From the NCBI RefSeq assembly GCF_028368995.1, contig NZ_JAQNDL010000001.1, forward strand, positions 96,001-160,000: 64,000 bases of DNA. The letters are read 5' to 3'. A program made the position numbers and the translations under genes. This DNA comes from Nannocystis bainbridge (GTDB taxonomy: Bacteria; Myxococcota_A; Polyangia; Nannocystales; Nannocystaceae). The notes below the pieces were generated by a model that ran no database searches, was not told the origin of the DNA, and was given only the letters and a program-made list of their open reading frames with translations. Numbering within the stretch: position 1 is the first letter of the stretch; every line of letters begins with the position of its first letter. Of the stretch, positions 14,379 through 34,295 are shown in pieces.

Positions 14379-16139
<1,761 letters not shown>

Positions 16140-16274
16140 GTTCCTGGGGTTCTAAGGTCGTGGCCGTCCGCACGCGCGCCTGGCCGATCGAACGCCAGCG
16201 TTTCCCATCCGCTCCCGCCTTTCAAGGGCGTAAGCCCGCAAGCGGCGACGTCTCCCTGACGACACATCTCACGG

Positions 16275-16319
16275 TTAAACGGCGACGCGGGCCGCCCCCG
16301 ATGGTGCGGCCCGCGTCGC
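16275..16319 (-). terminator. intrinsic terminator after paralogue 2
   Basis: 14-bp stem GCGACGCGGGCCGC/GCGGCCCGCGTCGC, short T run on the minus strand. Confidence 0.6.
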
Positions 16320-16331
16320 ACGCCACATGGC

Positions 16332-18083
16332 TCACATCGGCTGGACGCCGCAGTCGTCGACCTCGCTCGGGATGCAGCCTTCGCAGTCCCAGCGGAAGTT
16401 GTCGATGAGCGTCGCGGTCGACAGGTACTGATCGGACATGTCGGCCAGGAAGAAGCCGACCGTGATCTCCGCGCCCGGCTGCACGCCGCCCTTGGCCGTG
16501 AACCAGTCGGAGCACGCGTGCGACTCGAAGCCGGTGCCCGCGAGCTGCGGCTCGTTGTACGTGTAGCCCGGGCCGTCGAAGTACGGGTCGAGCGCGGTGA
16601 TGCTGATCGGCAGGCCCTTGGTCGGGTCGTTCGGATCGGGGATGAAGGTGACGTTGCCGCTGTACGGATCGACCGGCGGGACCTGGTTCGGGTTGTCCGG
16701 CGTCGGGTCGACCTGGTAGGCGATCAGCAGGTCGTTGAACGAGCTGTTGACGTAGGTCGGCCACTCGGCCGAGCAGAACGCGAACTCGAAGGTGTAGCCG
16801 AAGGTCCCCGGCGGCACGACCGTCTTGAAGCTGAAGTAGATGCGGTCGTTGCCGTCGCCGCTGGTCATCTCCCACTGCGCCTGGATGGTGTCCGAGCAGT
16901 CGTTGTCGCCGGCGCCGTTGTCACAACCCATGAAGGGCGTGCCGCCGGCGCCGTTGTTGCTGCCGTCCTTGGCCTTGAAGGGCATCGGCAGCGGGCCGCC
17001 GTCAGGGTTGCCGTTGTTGGTGGTGCCCTGGTTGTTCGGCGCCTCGATGACGATGCCGTCGGCGTTCGGCGCGACGATGTCACCGTTGGAGATGATCAGG
17101 AACGCGTCGCCCTCGCGCGGGCTGTACAGCCGCTGGTTCGGCGTGGCCGGATCGTTGTCGTGGTCGAACATGTAGGTGCCGTAGCCCTTGGCCACCTGCC
17201 AGCTCTTGTTGACCGGGCTCGAGTGCTGGAAGTCGGTGGTGACGATCGAGTTGTTGGGCATCGCGTTGCAGATGCCGATCGCCTTGAGCATGTTCGTCTT
17301 GTCGTTCTTGTCGGTGACGACCGCGGGCGCGTTGTCGCAGACGACGTAGTCCGCGGGCGCCTGGCAGTTGGCCGGGAAGAACGGGGTGCAGTTGTTGAGG
17401 CAGAAGTCGCCGGGGCCGCCGTTGACCTCGTTGCCGTCGTCGCACTGCTCGCCCCGCTCCTTGATGCCGTTGCCGCACTCCGCCAGCGAGAACGTGCAGT
17501 CGGGCTCGCAGCCGTCGCCGGGCTCCTGGTTGCCGTCGTCGCACTGCTCCGGATCCTCGACGGTCCCGTTGCCGCACTCCTGCGTCGGCGTCGCCGTGAG
17601 GCAGTCCGCGCTGCACTCGTCCCCGTCCTCGGTGTTGCCGTCGTCGCACACCTCGCCGCCCTCGACGATGTTGTTGCCGCACACCGGCGTGTTGGTGCAG
17701 GTCGGCTCGCAGCCGTCACCGGCGACGTCGTTGCCGTCGTCGCACTCCTCGTTGCCCTCCTGCACGCCGTTGCCGCACTCCGGCGCGGCCTCGGTCACGC
17801 CCTCCGTCGTGGTCGACGTCGAGGTCGTCGAGGTCGCGTCGGTGGTGCCCTGGGTGTCGCTGTCGCTCACGCCGGTGGTCGGCGTGGTCGTCGTCGGCGT
17901 GCTGTCGCTCTCCGAGTTGCCGGTGGTCCCGGGCGTCGCGTTCGTGTCGTCCGTGGTCGCGTCGGTGCCCTGGGTCTGGCCCTCCGAGGCGCCCGTGACG
18001 TTGTTGCCGTCGTCGCCGCACGCAGCGAGCGCCGAAGCGATGAAACCAGTCGTAAGGAGTCGAATGATCGGTCGAGTCGTCAT
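16332..18083 (-). CDS. Cys-rich repeat lipoprotein with choice-of-anchor L-like domain, paralogue 2
   Basis: Same architecture; near-identical to paralogue 1 in the middle and C-terminus and to paralogue 3 at the N-terminus. Confidence 0.85.
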   Translation of the reverse strand: MTTRPIIRLLTTGFIASALAACGDDGNNVTGASEGQTQGTDATTDDTNATPGTTGNSESDSTPTTTTPTTGVSDSDTQGTTDATSTTSTSTTTEGVTEAAPECGNGVQEGNEECDDGNDVAGDGCEPTCTNTPVCGNNIVEGGEVCDDGNTEDGDECSADCLTATPTQECGNGTVEDPEQCDDGNQEPGDGCEPDCTFSLAECGNGIKERGEQCDDGNEVNGGPGDFCLNNCTPFFPANCQAPADYVVCDNAPAVVTDKNDKTNMLKAIGICNAMPNNSIVTTDFQHSSPVNKSWQVAKGYGTYMFDHDNDPATPNQRLYSPREGDAFLIISNGDIVAPNADGIVIEAPNNQGTTNNGNPDGGPLPMPFKAKDGSNNGAGGTPFMGCDNGAGDNDCSDTIQAQWEMTSGDGNDRIYFSFKTVVPPGTFGYTFEFAFCSAEWPTYVNSSFNDLLIAYQVDPTPDNPNQVPPVDPYSGNVTFIPDPNDPTKGLPISITALDPYFDGPGYTYNEPQLAGTGFESHACSDWFTAKGGVQPGAEITVGFFLADMSDQYLSTATLIDNFRWDCEGCIPSEVDDCGVQPM

Positions 18084-18171
18084 GGTCGTGTCCTACTCGC
18101 AAAGAGTACGGCCGTCCTCGAGTGCGGGACGGCGCCGCCACGATTTCCCATCTTTCGCGGCTTATCAAGCC
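18084..18171 (-). promoter_or_regulatory. conserved upstream region of paralogue 2 (TTGATA...GATGGGAAATCGTGGCG)
   Basis: Near-identical to 20164-20251; similarity ends just beyond TTGATA. Confidence 0.6.
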
Positions 18172-18328
18172 GTCCCCAGCGCCGACCCGCTCGAGGCCCG
18201 ATCCTGCGCCAAGCTGGCGAAGACGCGCCCTGACAGGGCGCACGCCCGCTCCAACCATGGGTGATGATTGGACGTCGCGATTGTTCGACTCGCCTCGACA
18301 TCACACGGACGAAGGTCCGCAGCGGACA

Positions 18329-18360
18329 CAACAAAGGCGCGCACGTCGCCGTGCGCGCCC
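18329..18360 (-). terminator. intrinsic terminator after paralogue 3
   Basis: Stem GGCGCGCACG/CGTGCGCGCC with TTTGTTGT tail on the minus strand. Confidence 0.7.
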
Positions 18361-18384
18361 TTCGAGCTCAAGCCTGCGAGGCGA

Positions 18385-20163
<1,779 letters not shown>

Positions 20164-20251
20164 GGTCGTGTCCTACTCGCAGAGAGTACGGCCGTCCTCG
20201 AATGCGTGACGGTGCCGCCACGATTTCCCATCTTTCACGGCTTATCAAGCC
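20164..20251 (-). promoter_or_regulatory. conserved upstream region of paralogue 3
   Basis: Near-identical to 18084-18171. Confidence 0.6.
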
Positions 20252-20413
20252 CGGGCACCTGCCGACTGGTCCGCATCGGCAGCGAGCGACCCGCGGCCGC
20301 AAAACCGGCATGGACCAGCGTTCCGGGGCTCAAATCCGGCGAAGACGCATCATGACGGAGACGCAAGCTCGGCGGCCGTCGGTCCGCTCCGCCCGCGAAT
20401 GTCACAGTCGCGC

Positions 20414-20448
20414 AAAACAAAGAGGCGCGCCCGTCGCCGGGCGCGCCT
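20414..20448 (-). terminator. intrinsic terminator after paralogue 4
   Basis: Stem AGGCGCGCCCG/CGGGCGCGCCT with CTTTGTTTT tail on the minus strand. Confidence 0.75.
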
Positions 20449-20472
20449 GTCGATCTCACGCCTGGACAGCGA

Positions 20473-22248
20473 TCACATCGGCTGGACGCCGCAGTCGTCG
20501 ACCTCGCTCGGGACGCACCCCTCGCAGTCCCAGCGGAAGTTGTCGAGCAGCGCGACGGTGGCGAGGATGTTGTCCTGCATGTCGGCCAGGTAGAAGCCGA
20601 TGGTGACCTGCGCCCCCGGCTGCACGCCGCCCTTGGCGGTGAACCAGTCGGAGCAGGCGTGCTGCTCGAAGCCGGTGCCCGCGAGCTGCGGCTCGTTGTA
20701 GGTGTAACCCGGGTTGTCGAAGTACGGGTCGAGCGCCGTGATCGTCAGCGGCAGGCCCTTGGTCGGGTCGTTCGGGTTGGGGATGAAGGTGATGTTGCCG
20801 CTGTACGGATCGACCGGCGGGACCGCGTTCGGGTTGTCCGGGGTCGGATCGACCTGGTACGCGATCAACATGTCGTTGAACGAGGTGCCGACGTAGGACG
20901 GCCACTCGGACGAGCAGAACACGAAGTCGAAGGAGTAACCGAAGGTCCCCTGCGGCACCGTGGTCTTGAAGGTGAAGTAGATGCGGTCGTTCGGGTTGCT
21001 CTGACCGAGGGTCCACTGCGCCTGCAGGGTGTCGGAGCAGTCCTTGTCGCCGTTCGGGACGCCGTTGTCGCAGGTCTTGAACGGCGTGCCGCCGGCGCCG
21101 TTGTTGCTGCCGAAACCGACCTTGAAGGGCGCCGGCAGGGCGTTGTCGTCGGAGTTGAAGTTGTCGCCGTTGCCGACCTGCGAGTTGACGCCGTGGGTGA
21201 CGACGCCGCTGCCGTTGGGCGCGTTGATGGTGCCGCTCGACAGCATGAGGAAGGTGCTGCCCTCGCGCGGGCTGTAGAGCAGCTTGTTGGGCGTGGCCGG
21301 ATCGTTGTCGTGGTCGTAGGTGTACGAGCCGAAGCCCTTGGCGACCTGCCAGGTGTTGTTCTGGGCCGCCGGGTCGAACACGAAGTCGGTGGTCTGGATC
21401 GAGTTGTTCGCCTGCGCGTTGCAGATGCCGATCGACTTGAGCGCGTTGGTCTTGTCGGCCTTGTCGGTCAGGTTGATGGCGTCGTCGCAGTTGACGTAGT
21501 CGGCCGGGGCCTGGCACTGCGGCGGCGAGTACGGGGTGCAGTCGTTCTTGCAGAAGTCGTTCGGGCCGCCGTCGACCTCGTTACCGTCGTCGCACTGCTC
21601 GCCGGTCTCCTTGACGCCGTTGCCGCACTCGGCGGGCGTGAAGGTGCAGTCCGGCTCGCAGCCGTCGGCCGGCGCCTGGTTGCCGTCGTCGCACTGCTCC
21701 GGGTCCTCGACGGCCCCGTTGCCGCACACCTGCTCCATGGTCGCGGTCTGGCAGTCGGCGCTGCACTCGTCGCCGTCCTCGAGGTTGCCGTCGTCGCAGG
21801 CCTCGCCCGCCTCGACGGTCCCGTTGCCGCACTCCGCCGACAAAACGCAGCCCGGCTCACAGCCGTCGCCCGGCTCCTGGTTGCCGTCGTCGCACTCCTC
21901 GGTGCCCTCCTGCACGCCGTTGCCGCACTCCGCCTGCGGCTCGGTCACGCCCTCGGTCGCGTCGGTCGCGGCGGTCGTGGTGCCGGTCTCACCCTCGGTG
22001 GTCTCACCGTCGGTCGTGGCCTGCGTGTCGCTCATCCCCATGCCGGTGGTCGGCGTGGTGGGCGACTGCGTCTCCGACTCCGACTGGCCGCCAGGACCGG
22101 CGGTGGTCTGGCCGTCGGTCTCGGAGGCCGAAGCCTCGGAGCCGTTGCCCGTGGCGCCGGTGACGTTGTTGCCGTCGTCGCCGCACGCGGCGAGCGTGGC
22201 AGCACAGAAGCCTGCAGTGAGGAGGCGAAGGATGGGACGAGTCTTCAT
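20473..22248 (-). CDS. Cys-rich repeat lipoprotein with choice-of-anchor L-like domain, paralogue 4 (most divergent)
   Basis: Start MKTRPILRLL (ATG 22248) by alignment with the other paralogues; LAAC lipobox; shared C-terminus DNFRWDCEGCVPSEVDDCGVQPM. Confidence 0.85.
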   Translation of the reverse strand: MKTRPILRLLTAGFCAATLAACGDDGNNVTGATGNGSEASASETDGQTTAGPGGQSESETQSPTTPTTGMGMSDTQATTDGETTEGETGTTTAATDATEGVTEPQAECGNGVQEGTEECDDGNQEPGDGCEPGCVLSAECGNGTVEAGEACDDGNLEDGDECSADCQTATMEQVCGNGAVEDPEQCDDGNQAPADGCEPDCTFTPAECGNGVKETGEQCDDGNEVDGGPNDFCKNDCTPYSPPQCQAPADYVNCDDAINLTDKADKTNALKSIGICNAQANNSIQTTDFVFDPAAQNNTWQVAKGFGSYTYDHDNDPATPNKLLYSPREGSTFLMLSSGTINAPNGSGVVTHGVNSQVGNGDNFNSDDNALPAPFKVGFGSNNGAGGTPFKTCDNGVPNGDKDCSDTLQAQWTLGQSNPNDRIYFTFKTTVPQGTFGYSFDFVFCSSEWPSYVGTSFNDMLIAYQVDPTPDNPNAVPPVDPYSGNITFIPNPNDPTKGLPLTITALDPYFDNPGYTYNEPQLAGTGFEQHACSDWFTAKGGVQPGAQVTIGFYLADMQDNILATVALLDNFRWDCEGCVPSEVDDCGVQPM

Positions 22249-28995: not shown

Positions 28996-29384
28996 CCGCA
29001 AAGATTGGCATCATCCTCGCCGGCCTCCTCGGCATGCTCGGCGTCGCCGCCGGAGCCTTCGGCGCCCACGGCCTGCGCGACCGCGTCGGCCCGCGCGAGC
29101 TCGAGATCTGGAACACCGGCGCGCACTACCAGCAGGTCCACGCCGTCGTCCTCCTGGCCGTCGCCCTGTGGGCCCTGTCCGCCTCGACCCGCGGCGAGCC
29201 GGTCGCCCTCCACGGCGTCGCCATGTCGCTGTTCGTCGCCGGCATCGCCATCTTCTCCGGCACCCTCTACGCCATCACCCTCGGCGGCCCGCGGATCCTC
29301 GGCGCCGTCACCCCGCTGGGCGGCCTGTGCCTGCTCGCCGGGTGGCTGACGATCGTCGTCCTCGGCCTGCGTCAGGTCGGGTAG
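28992..29384 (+). CDS. DUF423 (YgdD/TMEM256) membrane protein
   Basis: GAFGAHGL, YQQVHA, IFSGTLY, GAVTPLGG. Confidence 0.9.
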   Translation: MTAKIGIILAGLLGMLGVAAGAFGAHGLRDRVGPRELEIWNTGAHYQQVHAVVLLAVALWALSASTRGEPVALHGVAMSLFVAGIAIFSGTLYAITLGGPRILGAVTPLGGLCLLAGWLTIVVLGLRQVG

Positions 29385-29465
29385 CGGCCCGCTCGACCGG
29401 AGCCCGCCGCTTCGGCCCGCGTCTGGCAGCCGGTCGGCCTGTATCGACCTGCCGGCCGTACTTCG

Positions 29466-29545
29466 AGACATGTTCTATCGAACATGTCTCGAAGAGCATG
29501 CGCATGAAGACATGCTCTCATGCGCATGTCCCGGGGGCCATGCTC
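29466..29545. repeat. 14-bp-period palindromic decamer array (6 units), intergenic between convergent genes
   Basis: CATG at 29469, 29483, 29497, 29511, 29525, 29539; the first two units form the larger palindrome CTTCGAGACATGTTC...GAACATGTCTCGAAG. Confidence 0.9.
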
Positions 29546-29589
29546 CTGTCACGCGCGTCGCGCCTCCGGAGCGCGCGCCGGCCCGTCGC

Positions 29590-30606
29590 TCAGTCGACCC
29601 CGCAGTAGCGCAGCGCGCAGGTCGGCGGCGCAGGCAGCTTGTACATCACGAACGGCCCGCAATTCTGCACCGCGATCGGGACCTTGAAGTGGCAGCTCTC
29701 GCCCTCCCAGTGGAAGCAGACCTCGCGCGCCACCACCCCGTCGGCGGGGCCCGGATCGGTCCCGCTGAGCCACCCGGGCGCGTGCGTCCCGCACGAGAAC
29801 TGCGGCGGCGCCGTGGTCGGCATGCGCCGCCCGGCCGAGCCGACGAAGCGCGACCACTGGCCCTCGGCCGGCAGATCCAGGTCGCACTCGACCTCCTCGA
29901 TCTGCGACGCCACGTTGCGCCCCGGCTGCGCCAGCGCGACCGCCTGCCCGCACTCGCCTGGTAGGTCCTCGGTCACGCACCCGTTGCAGCCGTCGCCGGG
30001 CGTCGCATTGCCGTCGTCGCACAGCTCGCCCTCGGCCGCCTGTAGCACGTTGTCGCCGCAGCGGGGCGCGAGCGCCGAGCAGCCGGGCGCGCAGCCCTCG
30101 TAGCTGTTGTCGTTGATCTTGTCGTCACACGCCTCGGTCCCCGCGCGGACGAAGCCGTCGCCGCAGCGCGCTTCCTTGCAGGTCGTCGGGCAGTCGTCGG
30201 TGTCCGAAGCGTTGCCGTCGTCGCACTCCTCGCCGTCCTCGATGGTCCCGTTGCCGCAGTCGGCGGGCGGCTCGGTCGTCACCGTCACCGTGAACGACGT
30301 CGGCCCGATGGTGGGGTCGGTGAACACGGTCGTGAAGGTCGGATCGATCGTCGTCGGGTCGATCGTCGTCGGGTCGATCGTCGTCGGGTCGATCGTCGTC
30401 GGGTCGATCGTCGTCTCGGTCGTCGGCGGATCGATCGTCGTCGGCAGCGTATCGGTCAGCGTATCGGTCAGCGTATCGGTGGTGATGGAGGTCGAAATGG
30501 TGTCGGTCGTATCGATCTTGATCGCGAAGCAGCCGCTCACGAGGTGCGCAAAAACAAGCCCTCGTGCCACGAGCCCCCACCGTCTACAAGCGAGTAACAT
30601 ATGCAC
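29590..30606 (-). CDS. lipoprotein with Thr/Asp/Pro stalk, Cys-rich (DUF4215-like) repeats and C-terminal uromodulin/GP2/OIT3-like D8C domain
   Basis: VSGC lipobox; TTIDP repeats; CGNG/CGDG units; CDLDL...WSRFVGSAGRRMPT...CGTHAPGWLSG...VCFHW...C...VQNCG..VMYKL..PPTC.LRYC. Confidence 0.8.
   Translation of the reverse strand: MHMLLACRRWGLVARGLVFAHLVSGCFAIKIDTTDTISTSITTDTLTDTLTDTLPTTIDPPTTETTIDPTTIDPTTIDPTTIDPTTIDPTFTTVFTDPTIGPTSFTVTVTTEPPADCGNGTIEDGEECDDGNASDTDDCPTTCKEARCGDGFVRAGTEACDDKINDNSYEGCAPGCSALAPRCGDNVLQAAEGELCDDGNATPGDGCNGCVTEDLPGECGQAVALAQPGRNVASQIEEVECDLDLPAEGQWSRFVGSAGRRMPTTAPPQFSCGTHAPGWLSGTDPGPADGVVAREVCFHWEGESCHFKVPIAVQNCGPFVMYKLPAPPTCALRYCGVD
30341..30480. repeat. coding tandem repeats: 5x15 bp (TTIDP) and 3x12 bp (TDTL)
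   Basis: GG(G/A)TCGATCGTCGTC x5 at 30341-30415; CAGCGTATCGGT x3 at 30445-30480. Confidence 0.9.
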
Positions 30607-30765
30607 TTCAAGTTACTCGTGGGCCCCGCACCCGTGCAAGGCCGAGCCCTCGATCGGGCTGGCCCGGGCCTGCGCGGCGCGATCCCGCGTGTTCGTGTGT
30701 CGCTCGCGGGTGCGGGCAATCGGCGTCAGTTGACAGCCGGCGAGCATTGCCGCATCGAGGCTCTG

Positions 30766-32904
30766 ATGACGAGGCAAACCCACCGCCCCTGGTTCGGTGC
30801 CGCGCTCGGGATTGTGTGGCTCGCGGGCTGTCCGAGCAGCCCGAACGCCAACGACACCGACGACCCGACCGCGACTGGTAACACGTCGATGACTGCGCCG
30901 TCCGGCGGGCCCACCGAGGCCACCGCGGGCGAGACCGAAGATCCGACGGCCGGCGATCCGACCGAGGACGGCGACGCCGCGGACCCTGGCCGCGTCACCG
31001 TTCACCGGCTCAACCGCACCGAGTACAACAACACCGTCCGGGACCTTCTCGGCACCGCGCAGCGGCCGGCCGACAGCTTCCCCGCCGACGACTTCGGCCT
31101 CGGCTTCGACAACATCTCCGACGTCCTCAGCCTCTCGCCGCTGCAGGCCGAGCTCTATGAGCGGGCCGCCGAGGGTCTGATCCTCGAGGCGATGGAGATC
31201 CCGATCACCGACCCGGGCACCTGGCAGATCGAGGCCGAAGACGCGCTCGCCTCGGTCGGCGGCGCCAGCGGCGAGGCCTGGAACCTCTACAGCAACGGCG
31301 AGGTGTACCAGACCATCGAGCTGCCCTACGACGGCCAGTACAAATTCAGCGCCCGCGTGTGGGGCCAGCAGGCCGGGCCCGACCTGCCGCACATGAACCT
31401 CACCGTCGACCAGGCGCCGGTGGCGATGTTCGACGTCGAGGCGGTGCAGAACGGCGCCCAGGTCTACGAGATCGAGATCGACGCCACCGCCGGCGTGCAC
31501 AAGTTCGCGGTCGAGTTCACCAACGACTTCTACGACGAGCCGAACATGGCCGACCGCAACCTGCTGGTCGACTGGTTCAAGGTCGAGGGCCCGATCAACC
31601 TGCCCGACGGCGACAACCCGCAGCGCACGCGCATCATGGTGTGCGACCCGAACGTCGACGGCGAAGAGGTCTGTCTGCGCCAGATCTTGAGCAGGTTCAC
31701 CGAGCGCGCCTGGCGACGCGCGGTCACCGGCGCCGAGCTCGACGCGCTGATGAAGTTCGTCAGCGACGCCAAGGGCGCCGGCGACACCTGGGAGTCGGGC
31801 CTGCGCATCGCCCTCCAGGCCGTCCTCGTCTCGCCGTACTTCATCTTCCGCGTCGAGCTCGACCCGGCGCCGACCGATCTCACGCCGCACCCGCTCGACG
31901 ACTTCGAGCTCGCCTCGCGCCTCTCCTACTTCCTGTGGAGCAGCATGCCCGACGACGAGCTGTTCGCCGCCGCGGCGGCCGGCAACCTCGAGGACCCGGA
32001 GGTGCTCGAGACCCAGGCCCGGCGCATGCTCGCCGACGACCGCGCCCGCGCCCTCATCGACAACTTCGCCGGTCAGTGGTGGCTGATCCGCAACATCGCC
32101 GTCGCCTTCAAGGACGTGGCGATGTACCCGCAGTGGAACGACGCCATGCGCGCGTCGATGCGGACCGAGATGCGCCTGTTCGCCGAGGCGTTCTTCTCCG
32201 AGGACCGCGACATGCTCGAGATGCTCACGGCCACCGACACCTTCGTCGACGCCACGCTCGCCGGGCACTACGGCATCGAGGGCCAGTTCGGGGCCGAGTT
32301 CGCCCCGGTCGACTTCGGCGACCTGCCGTTCCAGGGCATCCTCAACAAGGCCGGCCTGATGACGGTGCTCTCGCACGCCGACCACACCTCGCCGGTCAAG
32401 CGCGGCAAGTGGGTGCTCGAGAGCCTGCTGTGTCAGGTCCCGCCGCCGCCGCCGCCGGGCGTCGACACCAAGCTGAACCCGATCGAGGGCAAGACCCAGC
32501 GCGAGATCCTCGAGGCGCACCGCGAGAAGCCCGAGTGCATCGGCTGCCACGTCACCATGGACCCACTCGGCTTCGGCCTCGAGCACTACGACCCGCTCGG
32601 CGCCTGGCGCGACCTCGACAACGGCCTGCCGATCGACCCCTCGGGCACGCTGCCCAACAGCACCCCGTTCGCCGACGGGCTCGAGATGCAGACGCTGATC
32701 GCCGACGAGCCCGACTTCTTGCGCTGCATCACCCGCAAGACCTTCATCTACGCGCTCGGTCGCGCCGTCGCGGTGAAGGACATCCCGTACCTCGACGAGG
32801 CCACCGAGACCTTCTCGGCCAACGACCGTCGCTTCTCCGACCTCGTCGTCTCGCTCGTCACCAGCGAGCCGTTCCGCATGCGCCGCGGCGACCCCGCGAT
32901 GTGA
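30766..32904 (+). CDS. DUF1587/1595/1592/1588/1585 lipoprotein with inserted carbohydrate-binding-like module and CxxCH motif
   Basis: LAGC lipobox; RLNRTEYNNTVRDL, FTERAWRR, ELASRLSYFLWSSMPD, TSPVKRGKWV, CIGCH; NDFYD..DRNLLVD insert. Confidence 0.9.
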   Translation: MTRQTHRPWFGAALGIVWLAGCPSSPNANDTDDPTATGNTSMTAPSGGPTEATAGETEDPTAGDPTEDGDAADPGRVTVHRLNRTEYNNTVRDLLGTAQRPADSFPADDFGLGFDNISDVLSLSPLQAELYERAAEGLILEAMEIPITDPGTWQIEAEDALASVGGASGEAWNLYSNGEVYQTIELPYDGQYKFSARVWGQQAGPDLPHMNLTVDQAPVAMFDVEAVQNGAQVYEIEIDATAGVHKFAVEFTNDFYDEPNMADRNLLVDWFKVEGPINLPDGDNPQRTRIMVCDPNVDGEEVCLRQILSRFTERAWRRAVTGAELDALMKFVSDAKGAGDTWESGLRIALQAVLVSPYFIFRVELDPAPTDLTPHPLDDFELASRLSYFLWSSMPDDELFAAAAAGNLEDPEVLETQARRMLADDRARALIDNFAGQWWLIRNIAVAFKDVAMYPQWNDAMRASMRTEMRLFAEAFFSEDRDMLEMLTATDTFVDATLAGHYGIEGQFGAEFAPVDFGDLPFQGILNKAGLMTVLSHADHTSPVKRGKWVLESLLCQVPPPPPPGVDTKLNPIEGKTQREILEAHREKPECIGCHVTMDPLGFGLEHYDPLGAWRDLDNGLPIDPSGTLPNSTPFADGLEMQTLIADEPDFLRCITRKTFIYALGRAVAVKDIPYLDEATETFSANDRRFSDLVVSLVTSEPFRMRRGDPAM

Positions 32905-32936
32905 AGCCCACTACCCCAAACTCCGGAGACATCACG

Positions 32937-34295
32937 ATGCCGCGTCGCATTTCTCTCTCGCGCCGTACCCTCCTGGGCGGGGCTGGTGCGCTCATCGCCC
33001 TGCCCTGGCTGGAGTCGCTCGCGCCCGTCGTTCGCCGGGCTCGCGGGGCCGACCCCGAACCCCCGCCGCTGCGCGCCCTCTTCTATTACCTCCCCAACGG
33101 GATCCACATGCAGTCGTGGACGCCCGCGACCGAAGGACCGGGCTTCGAGATCACGCCGATCCTCTCGCCGCTGGTCGACCCGCAGGCCATGGTCGACCTC
33201 AAGGGCGACGTGCTGGTCCTGAGCGGGCTGCAGAACCTGCCCGCCAAGCCCGAGGGCCCGGGCGACCACGCCGGCGGCACCTCGGCGTTCTTGACCTGCA
33301 CCCACGTCACCAAGTCCGAGACCGACATCAACAACGACATCTCGATCGACCAGGTGCTCGCCAACGCCATCGGCGAGGCCACGCCGCACCGCTCGCTGCA
33401 GTTCGGGACCGCCAACGGCGCGACCATGGGCAACTGCGACAGCGGCTACAGCTGCGCCTACACCAGCAACATCTCGTGGGCCGACGCCAAGACCCCGCTG
33501 CCGAAGCTCTACGACCCGCAGGTCATCTTCGACCTGCTGTTCTCCGGCTTCGACCCCGAGGCGACCGCCGAGGAGCAGGCCAAGCGGCGCAGCAACCGGA
33601 TCAGTGTCATCGACTACGCAACAGGCCAGGTCGAGTCGCTGCAGACCAAGCTCGGCAAGACCGACCGCGACAAGCTAGACCAGTACCTCACCGGCCTGCG
33701 CGACCTCGAGAAGCGCCTCACCGCCGAGAACACCGAGGCGGTGTGCGAGCTGCCGGCGATGTTCTCGGGCGCCTACCCGGACTTCACGACCCACGTCGAC
33801 CTCATGACCGAGCTGATGGTGCTGGCGTTCCAGTGCGACCAGACCCGCGTCGTCACCTTCATGCTCGAGAACGCGGGCAGCTACCGCGACTACTCGTTCA
33901 TCGGCGCCGCGGGCTCGCACCACGAGATCTCGCACCACATGGACAGCCCGGACAACTTCGCCAAGCTCGAGATCATCGATCGCTGGGAGATGGTCCAGTT
34001 CGCCAAGCTGCTGCAGAAGCTCAAGGCCTCGCCCGAGGGCGAGGGCACCCTGCTCGACAACTGCGTGGTGTTCCTGTCGTCGGAGATCAGCGACGGCAAC
34101 GCCCACAACCACAACAACCTGCCGGTGCTGCTGGCCGGCGGCGCCGGCGGCAAGATCACCCCCGGGCGCCACGTGAAGTACGGCGAGGCCCCGCCGCTGT
34201 CCAACCTGTTCATCTCGATCGGCGAGATGTTCGGCGTGCCGATGGCGGGCTTCGGCGACGACGGCGTCGGCCCGCTGCAGAACCTCAAGGTCTGA
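32937..34295 (+). CDS. DUF1552 family Tat-exported protein
   Basis: SRRTLLGGAG..IALPWLESL, YLPNG, SIDQVLA, HHEISHH, TLLDN, HNHNNLPVLLAGG. Confidence 0.9.
   Translation: MPRRISLSRRTLLGGAGALIALPWLESLAPVVRRARGADPEPPPLRALFYYLPNGIHMQSWTPATEGPGFEITPILSPLVDPQAMVDLKGDVLVLSGLQNLPAKPEGPGDHAGGTSAFLTCTHVTKSETDINNDISIDQVLANAIGEATPHRSLQFGTANGATMGNCDSGYSCAYTSNISWADAKTPLPKLYDPQVIFDLLFSGFDPEATAEEQAKRRSNRISVIDYATGQVESLQTKLGKTDRDKLDQYLTGLRDLEKRLTAENTEAVCELPAMFSGAYPDFTTHVDLMTELMVLAFQCDQTRVVTFMLENAGSYRDYSFIGAAGSHHEISHHMDSPDNFAKLEIIDRWEMVQFAKLLQKLKASPEGEGTLLDNCVVFLSSEISDGNAHNHNNLPVLLAGGAGGKITPGRHVKYGEAPPLSNLFISIGEMFGVPMAGFGDDGVGPLQNLKV

Follow-up and report, generated by a model that had tools for sequence, protein, structure and literature searches.

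The C-terminus of a protein encoded in the genome of the soil or marine myxobacterium Nannocystis bainbridge is a D10C (also called D8C) domain, the cysteine-rich module of uromodulin (UMOD) and GP2. The gene, of 338 codons plus a stop codon (29590-29592), lies at 29590..30606 on the reverse strand of the 64,000-nucleotide stretch of DNA analyzed here (the window; positions 96,001 to 160,000 of contig NZ_JAQNDL010000001.1, assembly GCF_028368995.1), and the domain itself, in an eight-cysteine form, occupies 29602..29952 on the same strand (residues 219-335). D8C is said to have been first described in a paper of 2004, and mutations in the D10C domain of uromodulin cause kidney disease. The D10C fold was described as new in 2022, and the consulted sections of two papers list it only in the animal proteins UMOD, GP2, OIT3/LZP and VWDE and in fish omcins (PMC8930769, PMC11415648). 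Taken as a whole, the evidence makes it reasonably probable that the Nannocystis gene encodes a membrane-tethered, stalked and disulfide-rich protein that carries a distal D10C domain with a role in recognition or adhesion, and that this domain goes back to one old transfer between domains of life, for which the direction from animal to myxobacterium is favoured.

The identity of the domain is confirmed by the agreement of profile, pairwise sequence and predicted-fold comparisons. The Pfam profile D8C_UMOD (PF23283) matches residues 254-335 over positions 4-87 of its 88, with an E-value of 1.2e-17 and a score of 64.3 bits that lies well above the cut-off of 27; in a six-frame search of the genome the same domain scores 68.3 bits. 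When all sequences of the Protein Data Bank (PDB) are searched with phmmer, just four distinct ones are retrieved at E<=1, and all are GP2 or uromodulin (human GP2 at 2e-18 and 2e-17, uromodulin at 8.3e-15 and 4.1e-12), with an alignment that runs from the first to the tenth cysteine of the module (C1 to C10, residues 219-335). Residues 215-338 were modelled with AlphaFold2 from an alignment of 16 rows of myxobacterial domains, and the model reaches a mean predicted local distance difference test score (pLDDT) of 93.1 and a predicted template modelling score (pTM) of 0.86. Searched against the PDB with Foldseek, this model yields 12 matches at E<=0.001, the next match being at E=1.7. The 11 matches shown are all UMOD or GP2 D10C chains (7p6r/7p6s/7p6t, 7pfp and 9nu1-3), with query-based template modelling scores (TMq) of 0.85-0.88, a root-mean-square deviation of 1.5-1.7 Å (about 1.6 Å) over about 121 columns and 35-39% identity. 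The order of motifs is also that of the mammalian domains, namely C-D...W-Y/S-R-F...C-x-T-x-A-P-x-W-L...V-C...Y-C. The original prediction had recognized a D8C/D10C-like domain in the letters of this region (29593-29952, that is, residues 219-338, from C1 through the last codon), and it stands on all of these comparisons; the peptide that it quoted is the exact C-terminus of the 338-residue open reading frame (ORF).

The cysteine framework of the domain places it in a recognizable subtype. Eight cysteines are present (C1 at residue 219, C2 at 241, C4 at 272, C5 at 297, C7 at 305, C8 at 316, C9 at 330 and C10 at 335), and these eight are invariant in the alignment of bacterial domains, whereas a residue-by-residue alignment to GP2 shows alanine at C3 and serine at C6. 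According to the consulted part of the GP2 structure paper, the disulfides of the GP2 domain are C1-C8, C2-C9, C3-C6 (GP2 C107-C145), C4-C10 and C5-C7 (PMC8930769). Since C3 pairs with C6 in GP2 and both are absent here, exactly one disulfide pair is missing, as had been stated in the original prediction together with the count of eight cysteines out of ten. By homology to GP2, the four remaining bridges, at four of the five disulfide positions of the mammalian domain, would be 219-316 (C1-C8), 241-330 (C2-C9), 272-335 (C4-C10) and 297-305 (C5-C7). The lack of both C3 and C6 is common to all 51 domain instances from bacterial loci, and it is not peculiar to bacteria. The same eight-cysteine pattern is found in all six repeats of one Nematostella protein, in the single Actinostola domain examined, in one of seven Acropora repeats and in Trichoplax; the ten-cysteine form is present in all 11 Montipora and all four Oculina repeats, and it is the commonest pattern in fish (7/17). 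Across the 470 instances tabulated, partner cysteines tend to be lost jointly, C3 with C6 and C2 with C9. The window domain belongs to a natural eight-cysteine subtype without the C3-C6 bridge.

The 338-codon frame is a real gene, as judged by its codon composition, orthologues, synteny and substitution pattern. The GC content at its three codon positions is 0.60, 0.56 and 0.92 (GC1, GC2 and GC3), and orthologues with 88-94% identity over the last 124 residues are found in N. punicea, N. exedens, N. pusilla, N. radixulma and Nannocystis sp. RBIL2. The order of genes is the same in all five of these assemblies, one of which is a complete chromosome, with divergent DUF1552 and DUF1592 genes on one side and genes for DUF423, rarA/mgsA and a FAD-binding protein on the other; for DUF423 and DUF1552 the comparison reports conservation at the DNA level and gene order, and not protein identity. 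The ratio of nonsynonymous to synonymous substitution rates (dN/dS, Nei-Gojobori) for the last 124 codons, those of D10C, falls between 0.14 and 0.34 in all 15 pairs, and in the region of cysteine repeats that precedes them it ranges from 0.05 to 0.70. The D10C domain is under purifying selection. The fact that the best-scoring database matches to the domain are animal proteins could raise the suspicion of eukaryotic contamination, mis-assembly or a mis-called frame, but this suspicion is already refuted by a GC3 that is typical of the host, by the recurrence of the gene and its neighbours in five named assemblies, by a second D10C copy on another contig of the same genome and by the in-frame fusion of the domain to myxobacterial DUF4215 repeats and a lipobox, and its probability is next to nil.

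The distribution of the domain in bacteria is narrow and uneven. PF23283 is matched in all 11 genomes of the genus (the window genome and 10 of 10 others), in 35 of 73 genomes of the family (20/42 when only high-quality genomes are considered, and 7 of 17 genera) and in 13 members of an even, phylum-wide sample of 401 genomes (11/340 of high quality), and in none of the 14 control genomes. A scan for the single motif CGTHAPGW in one genome per species (185,579 species), which is biased towards that motif and sets a lower bound, returned at least 33 confirmed loci. Myxobacterial or 'deltaproteobacterial' titles accompany 29 of the 33, and the other four comprise one locus titled simply 'bacterium', one from a metagenome-assembled genome (MAG) of Planctomycetota and two from a MAG titled Enterobacteriaceae. 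These last two (L032 and L047, 'uncultured Enterobacteriaceae bacterium') have 67% GC and encode DUF4215+D8C, P-domain, Dicty_CTDC and RCC1 repeat proteins, and given this GC content and these myxobacterial-type genes the title of the MAG is very probably wrong. A search for viral contigs that might act as vectors gave 39 pattern matches, none of which was confirmed by tblastn. The N. bainbridge genome (11.05 Mb in 5 contigs) has two D10C genes. The second one (contig 3, 1028816-1029043 on the reverse strand; L002, 1486-2856 on the reverse strand) encodes a protein of 456 residues with a lipobox-like N-terminus, more DUF4215 repeats than the window protein and the same eight-cysteine domain. 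Other Nannocystis genomes have between one and four D8C matches each. As far as profile matches and trees can tell, the bacterial D10C domains make up one family that is concentrated in the Nannocystaceae and scattered elsewhere in the Myxococcota.

The relatives of the domain lie mostly outside bacteria. A phmmer search with the 124-residue domain against 1.84 billion representative sequences retrieved 2,822 clusters at E<=0.001, of which 1,414 remain at E<=1e-10 and 80 at E<=1e-30. Composition and N-termini give most of the best 150 of the 2,822 a eukaryotic look, with as many as 17 copies of the domain in tandem, and roughly twenty of the 150 are bacterial proteins (low in lysine, or bearing a lipobox or DUF4215). 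Names were looked up for 30 proteins, and nine eukaryotic ones came with organism names; the named eukaryotic relatives are six anthozoan proteins (from Montipora, Acropora, Nematostella, with two, Oculina and Actinostola), one from Trichoplax and one from a loach, together with human PDB entries. The closest of them are those of anthozoan cnidarians, at 44-50% identity to the window domain. The tandem-D10C proteins of cnidarians and placozoans, among them Nematostella XP_048579921 (which is named as a 'notch homolog'), the Acropora, Montipora, Oculina and Actinostola proteins and Trichoplax TRIADDRAFT_53244, are the nearest relatives in sequence, and the eight-cysteine pattern described above is shared with some of them. 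Their organization is different. These proteins, and the teleost omcins according to the consulted part of the paper that describes them (PMC11415648), are secreted eukaryotic proteins in which 2-17 copies of D10C are accompanied by epidermal growth factor (EGF), WSC or zona pellucida (ZP) modules, whereas the window protein presents a single D10C on a bacterial stalk.

Phylogenetic trees group the bacterial domains and set them beside those of cnidarians. One tree, inferred under LG+G4 with a short search, is restricted to labelled rows, 39 in all, of which 26 are bacterial and 13 come from named eukaryotes. In it the 26 bacterial rows fall on one side of a single branch, with a support of 90 in the Shimodaira-Hasegawa-like approximate likelihood-ratio test (SH-aLRT), and their neighbours are nine cnidarian rows (a support of 87 for the two together), Trichoplax and fish being placed outside; the cnidarian domains are hence the nearest group to the bacterial ones. 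In a FastTree of 279 rows, 40 of the 44 known bacterial rows lie in one clade (local support 89) along with 24 unlabelled rows that are mostly bacterial-looking. A third tree, of 115 rows, inferred with IQ-TREE under a mixture model and a short search, contains no starred branch that demands more than one origin. The patchy distribution in bacteria, in combination with the position of the bacterial domains beside those of cnidarians, speaks for one inter-domain transfer. The original prediction had offered horizontal transfer or an ancient shared domain, and this was the right pair of options; the phylogeny of metazoan and bacterial homologues, in which the labelled bacterial rows stand as one group next to the cnidarian ones, and the patchiness favour the first of the two. 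Being unrooted, the tree speaks for a single exchange that linked a cnidarian-like lineage with the Myxococcota, in either direction. The narrow and patchy bacterial range, set against an animal range that extends over placozoans, cnidarians and vertebrates, favours a passage from animal to bacterium, which among the readings that invoke transfer we would put clearly ahead.

The converse history, in which D10C arose in the Myxococcota or earlier and entered the stem lineage of animals, so that the bacterial context would be the original one and the eight-cysteine form ancestral, keeps a minor but real chance of being correct. The labelled tree permits a root on the bacterial branch, and the arrangement that this root yields among animals, (cnidaria,(placozoan, fish)), is roughly the species tree. 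The eight-cysteine form is the one seen in every bacterial instance and in Nematostella, Actinostola, Acropora and Trichoplax, with the ten-cysteine form dominating in corals and being the commonest in fish; the composition of the gene is fully adapted to the host; and myxobacterial donors have been proposed for other eukaryotic genes in the consulted part of one report (PMC13012113). Yet the domain is rare and patchy in bacteria, where 13 of 401 genomes across the phylum and 7 of 17 genera of the family have it, and animals, judged by the best 150 matches, supply most of the 2,822 clusters. In the trees, moreover, the bacterial sequences do not exceed the animal ones in diversity.

Several points weigh against the account that we prefer, of a surface protein whose domain came by one transfer from an animal. 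In the 279-row tree, four of the 44 bacterial rows fall outside the main clade, with weak support. The 115-row tree leaves the deep forks open and requires nine changes of the bacterial label, and it places the trio of L004, L015 and P0106, as well as L009 and L012, in a mixed group of cnidarian and unlabelled sequences. With such mixed placements in both trees, more than one transfer is possible. The 39-row tree was built on labelled rows and set aside, besides the unlabelled ones, five long-branch proteins or rows (P0035, L012, P0062, P0057 and P0165), and with about 117 columns the tree is weak. The eukaryotic sample consists of the best 150 matches to a bacterial query, which biases it towards bacteria-like sequences, and it includes only nine named proteins. 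A root on the bacterial branch, giving (bacteria,(cnidaria,(placozoan, fish))), fits an ancient or a bacterium-to-animal origin equally well. The GC content of the gene (0.71) equals that of the genome, so that no compositional trace of a transfer is left. With regard to function, the lipoprotein status is read from the sequence, role and location are putative, and no recurrent partner gene was found beside D8C genes outside Nannocystis in the 12 of 24 loci scanned. Calling by GC3 gave 129 ORFs in 21 of the 24 loci, and this Pfam scan covered the 69 that come from the 12 loci L028-L039; it left out the 60 ORFs of L041-L051, and L040, L048 and L049 yielded no ORF. Its sole recurring neighbourhood was that of the near-identical pair L029/L030.

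The organization of the protein, from N- to C-terminus, is that of a lipobox followed by a stalk of threonine, proline and aspartate repeats, three DUF4215 cysteine repeats and the D10C domain. The listed start codon is a GTG at 30606, and the translations of the orthologues begin to align at an ATG at 30600 (residue 3). The signal peptide and lipobox (30529..30606, reverse strand; residues 1-26, ending in FAHLVSG|C26) are read from the sequence, in which small residues and a hydrophobic stretch precede a cysteine, Cys26, that does not vary among the 18 aligned homologues and is the residue predicted to be lipidated. Immediately downstream, residues 27-36 (FAIKIDTTDT; 30499..30528, reverse strand) constitute a conserved motif, C-x-x-x-K-x-D-T-T-D when read from the lipobox cysteine, in which K30 and D32 are likewise invariant in the 18 homologues and which may be a signal for lipoprotein sorting or surface export. 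The stalk spans residues 27-116 (30259..30528, reverse strand) and is of low complexity, with 39% threonine, 13% proline, 14% aspartate and 12% isoleucine. It contains a 15-bp tandem repeat of 7.3 copies (30338-30444) that encodes the pentapeptide TIDPT and a 12-bp tandem repeat of 3.4 copies (30441-30480) that encodes LTDT, and it varies in length and sequence among Nannocystis species. Three acidic repeats of four cysteines each follow (29977..30258, reverse strand; residues 117-143, 148-176 and 183-210). They are matched, in three stretches each, by DUF4215 (PF13948) in the Pfam scan (51.1 bits, cut-off 27) and by TIGR02232 (myxo_disulf_rpt) in the NCBIfam scan (61.1 bits, cut-off 20.8), and in more distant homologues they number five. 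The layout put forward in the original prediction, a lipoprotein with a threonine-rich stalk and cysteine repeats, is thus recovered at the sequence level. An AlphaFold2 model of the full-length protein has a mean pLDDT of 48.6 and is too poor for reading the stalk or the packing of the domains.

This organization suggests how the protein may work. The signal peptide would be cleaved at the lipobox and the lipidated Cys26 would anchor the N-terminus, probably in the outer membrane. The 90-residue repeat of threonine, proline and aspartate, whose composition and variation are observed, would adopt an extended conformation and serve as a spacer of variable length, and the three DUF4215 repeats, with two disulfides each, might form a stiff rod. 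D10C, with its four predicted disulfides, would be displayed at the tip, away from the cell, and would bind a partner. As the domain has no N-glycosylation sequon, such binding would be by the surface of the protein itself, with no attached glycan. The role that we consider most likely is that of recognition or adhesion at the cell surface, towards the own matrix, kin, prey or a substrate, in the manner of other myxobacterial surface receptors that stand on stalks. The domain would have been gained in one old inter-domain transfer, after which Nannocystis would have inherited it vertically and the module would have been shuffled among cysteine-rich surface proteins.

A protein of this kind might instead be structural or protective, an abundant disulfide-rich lipoprotein that builds or stabilizes the envelope or the extracellular matrix or buffers metal or redox stress, with D10C as no more than a stable and protease-resistant cap. 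Cysteine-rich repeat proteins are indeed very numerous in the genome, which has 170 DUF4215 matches, MopE-type 'putative metal-binding' motifs accompany D10C in other Myxococcota, and no ligand was found, nor any partner gene near D8C genes in the scan of 12 of 24 loci described above. The position of D10C, farthest from the anchor and behind a long spacer, is nonetheless the usual layout for the display of binding modules, and no other part of the protein is as conserved as D10C, whereas the stalk drifts. We regard such a structural or protective role as rather improbable.

A further possibility, that the bacterial domain acts as a decoy in the manner of UMOD and GP2 and shows a glycan that distracts the lectins of competitors, predators or phages, must be judged very improbable. 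The mammalian module displays a high-mannose glycan that the adhesin FimH binds, as stated in the consulted parts of two sources (PMC8930769; bioRxiv 10.1101/2025.05.09.653020), and O-glycosylation of the threonine-rich stalk is conceivable, if speculative. An N-x-S/T sequon is absent from residues 219-335 (all three that the protein has are in its DUF4215 repeats), and in the alignment no asparagine stands where UMOD has N275 and GP2 has N65. Hence, the FimH-decoy function, to which the original prediction had alluded, cannot be transferred to the bacterial domain. In GP2, a cysteine-bridged beta-hairpin packed on D10C defines, in the consulted text of the structure paper, a bipartite decoy module (PMC8930769). 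The window protein has just eight residues between Cys210, with which the cysteines of its third DUF4215 repeat end, and C1 (219), and no spare pair of cysteines, so that the hairpin, which forms the glycan groove of GP2, is missing. The protein also differs from GP2 and UMOD in the absence of the C3-C6 disulfide, of an N-glycan sequon in its D10C and of a glycosylphosphatidylinositol (GPI) anchor, in place of which it has an N-terminal lipobox, a threonine-rich stalk, DUF4215 repeats and the domain at its C-terminus. No EGF module and no ZP module, the latter being the one for polymerization, is detected in it, the Pfam scan at E<=1 giving only D8C_UMOD and DUF4215.

The nearest functional parallel among myxobacteria may be TraA, the outer-membrane exchange receptor of Myxococcus xanthus, for which a PA14 head, a 'rigid stalk' of cysteine-rich repeats and a MYXO-CTERM anchor are described in the consulted part of the source (PMC3325183). 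Both proteins would set a globular recognition domain on a stalk of disulfide-rich tandem repeats with a lipid-type anchor, and the likeness is one of analogy. The topology is mirrored, since the window protein has its anchor at the N-terminus and its head at the C-terminus, and Pfam and NCBIfam scans at E<=1 find neither PA14 nor TIGR04201 nor TIGR03901/MYXO-CTERM in it. Homology to the TraA repeats was considered and rejected, for these belong to TIGR04201, according to the same source (PMC3325183), and those of the window protein to TIGR02232.

The D10C module appears, from the domain combinations in which it occurs, to be mobile among the cysteine-rich surface-type proteins of these bacteria. 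The segments that accompany D8C include DUF4215, MopE, SRCR, PKD, PPC, the proprotein-convertase P-domain, Stig1-like and DUF7151/collagen-like regions, in combinations such as DUF4215 alone, MopE motifs with PPC, or MopE with two or three SRCR domains. Further D8C proteins of the Myxococcota (DUF4215+D8C in Enhygromyxa and Nannocystaceae, MopE+D8C+SRCR, and P-domain+DUF4215+D8C) resemble the window protein in their eight-cysteine D10C, in the bacterial group to which they belong and, in many cases, in a lipobox-type N-terminus, and they differ from it in their partner domains, in their sizes (192 to 7,241 residues) and in their unrelated neighbourhoods. Only two of the proteins behind the DUF4215 matches of the N. 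bainbridge genome end in D10C.

Some of these combinations are worth recording in their own right. MopE, D8C and two or three SRCR domains are joined in very large proteins of Myxococcota and Bradymonadia (L029 2852-7714, L030 2740-7542 and L031 2665-7692; P0118, P0153 and P0208), which bring two animal-type modules together in a single bacterial protein. SRCR has no match in the genome of the window, an absence that carries little weight because the controls have none either. P0168 is a protein of 7,241 residues that ends in D10C, and the P0051 cluster (16 members) consists of 294-residue proteins with two D10C domains, from metagenome contigs of up to 97 kb. In a Myxococcales MAG from Lake Baikal (L028, 4588-6354, forward strand), D8C follows a cysteine-rich region that resembles Stig1, a family of plant stigma proteins.

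The occurrence of the domain in bacteria had been presented in the original prediction as novel, and this holds in part. A literature search found no paper on D8C or D10C in bacteria, and the papers that use the term 'D10C domain' deal, by their titles and the beginnings of their abstracts, with animal proteins only. The domain is, on the other hand, common in the Nannocystaceae and already tagged by automatic annotation, given that a precomputed Pfam annotation lists PF23283 for all 20 close homologues; these carry the name 'DUF4215 domain-containing protein' at NCBI and 'cysteine-rich repeat protein' at JGI. What is new here is the bacterial variant, and not a fold or a system. Its relevance to the evolution and function of the D10C fold is moderate. 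D10C emerges as a stable and selected part of surface-type proteins in one family of the Myxococcota, and it makes a clear and seemingly datable example of animals and myxobacteria exchanging a gene, the nearest relatives being cnidarian-like. That the domain has been kept without an N-glycan argues for an activity of its own, and a small bacterial D10C with four predicted disulfides should lend itself to expression and mutation more readily than uromodulin. A bolder proposal, to which we attach a small chance of being right, is that D10C has an intrinsic, glycan-independent binding activity older than its use as a decoy in mammals, and that it was exchanged between anthozoan-like animals and Nannocystaceae living with them, for instance in mucus or on surfaces, and kept for an 'animal-style' recognition of surfaces alongside modules such as SRCR in related Myxococcota. 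Were this so, the bacterial protein would offer a simple and unglycosylated system in which to search for the D10C ligand of OIT3, VWDE, omcins and the cnidarian proteins.

The surroundings of the gene are well conserved within the genus. It is divergently paired with two genes on the forward strand, the first of which (30766-32904) encodes a 'PSD' protein with DUF1587/1595/1592/1588/1585 and an inserted carbohydrate-binding CBM60 (51.5 bits), and the second (about 32901-34295) a DUF1552 (HXXSHH) protein. This pairing is kept throughout Nannocystis, including distant MAGs in which the whole D10C protein is only 47% identical, and it is not kept outside that genus. DUF1592 is matched 16 times in the genome, and the DUF1592/DUF1552 pair is taken as genomic context only. 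A scan of 29300-30850 for promoters and terminators returned no promoter-like site and one terminator-like hairpin within the coding region, which is read as a chance occurrence. Elsewhere in the window, at about 15,543-21,930 on the reverse strand, four open frames of 586-646 residues with DUF4215 repeats follow one another in what resembles a cluster of cysteine-repeat paralogues.

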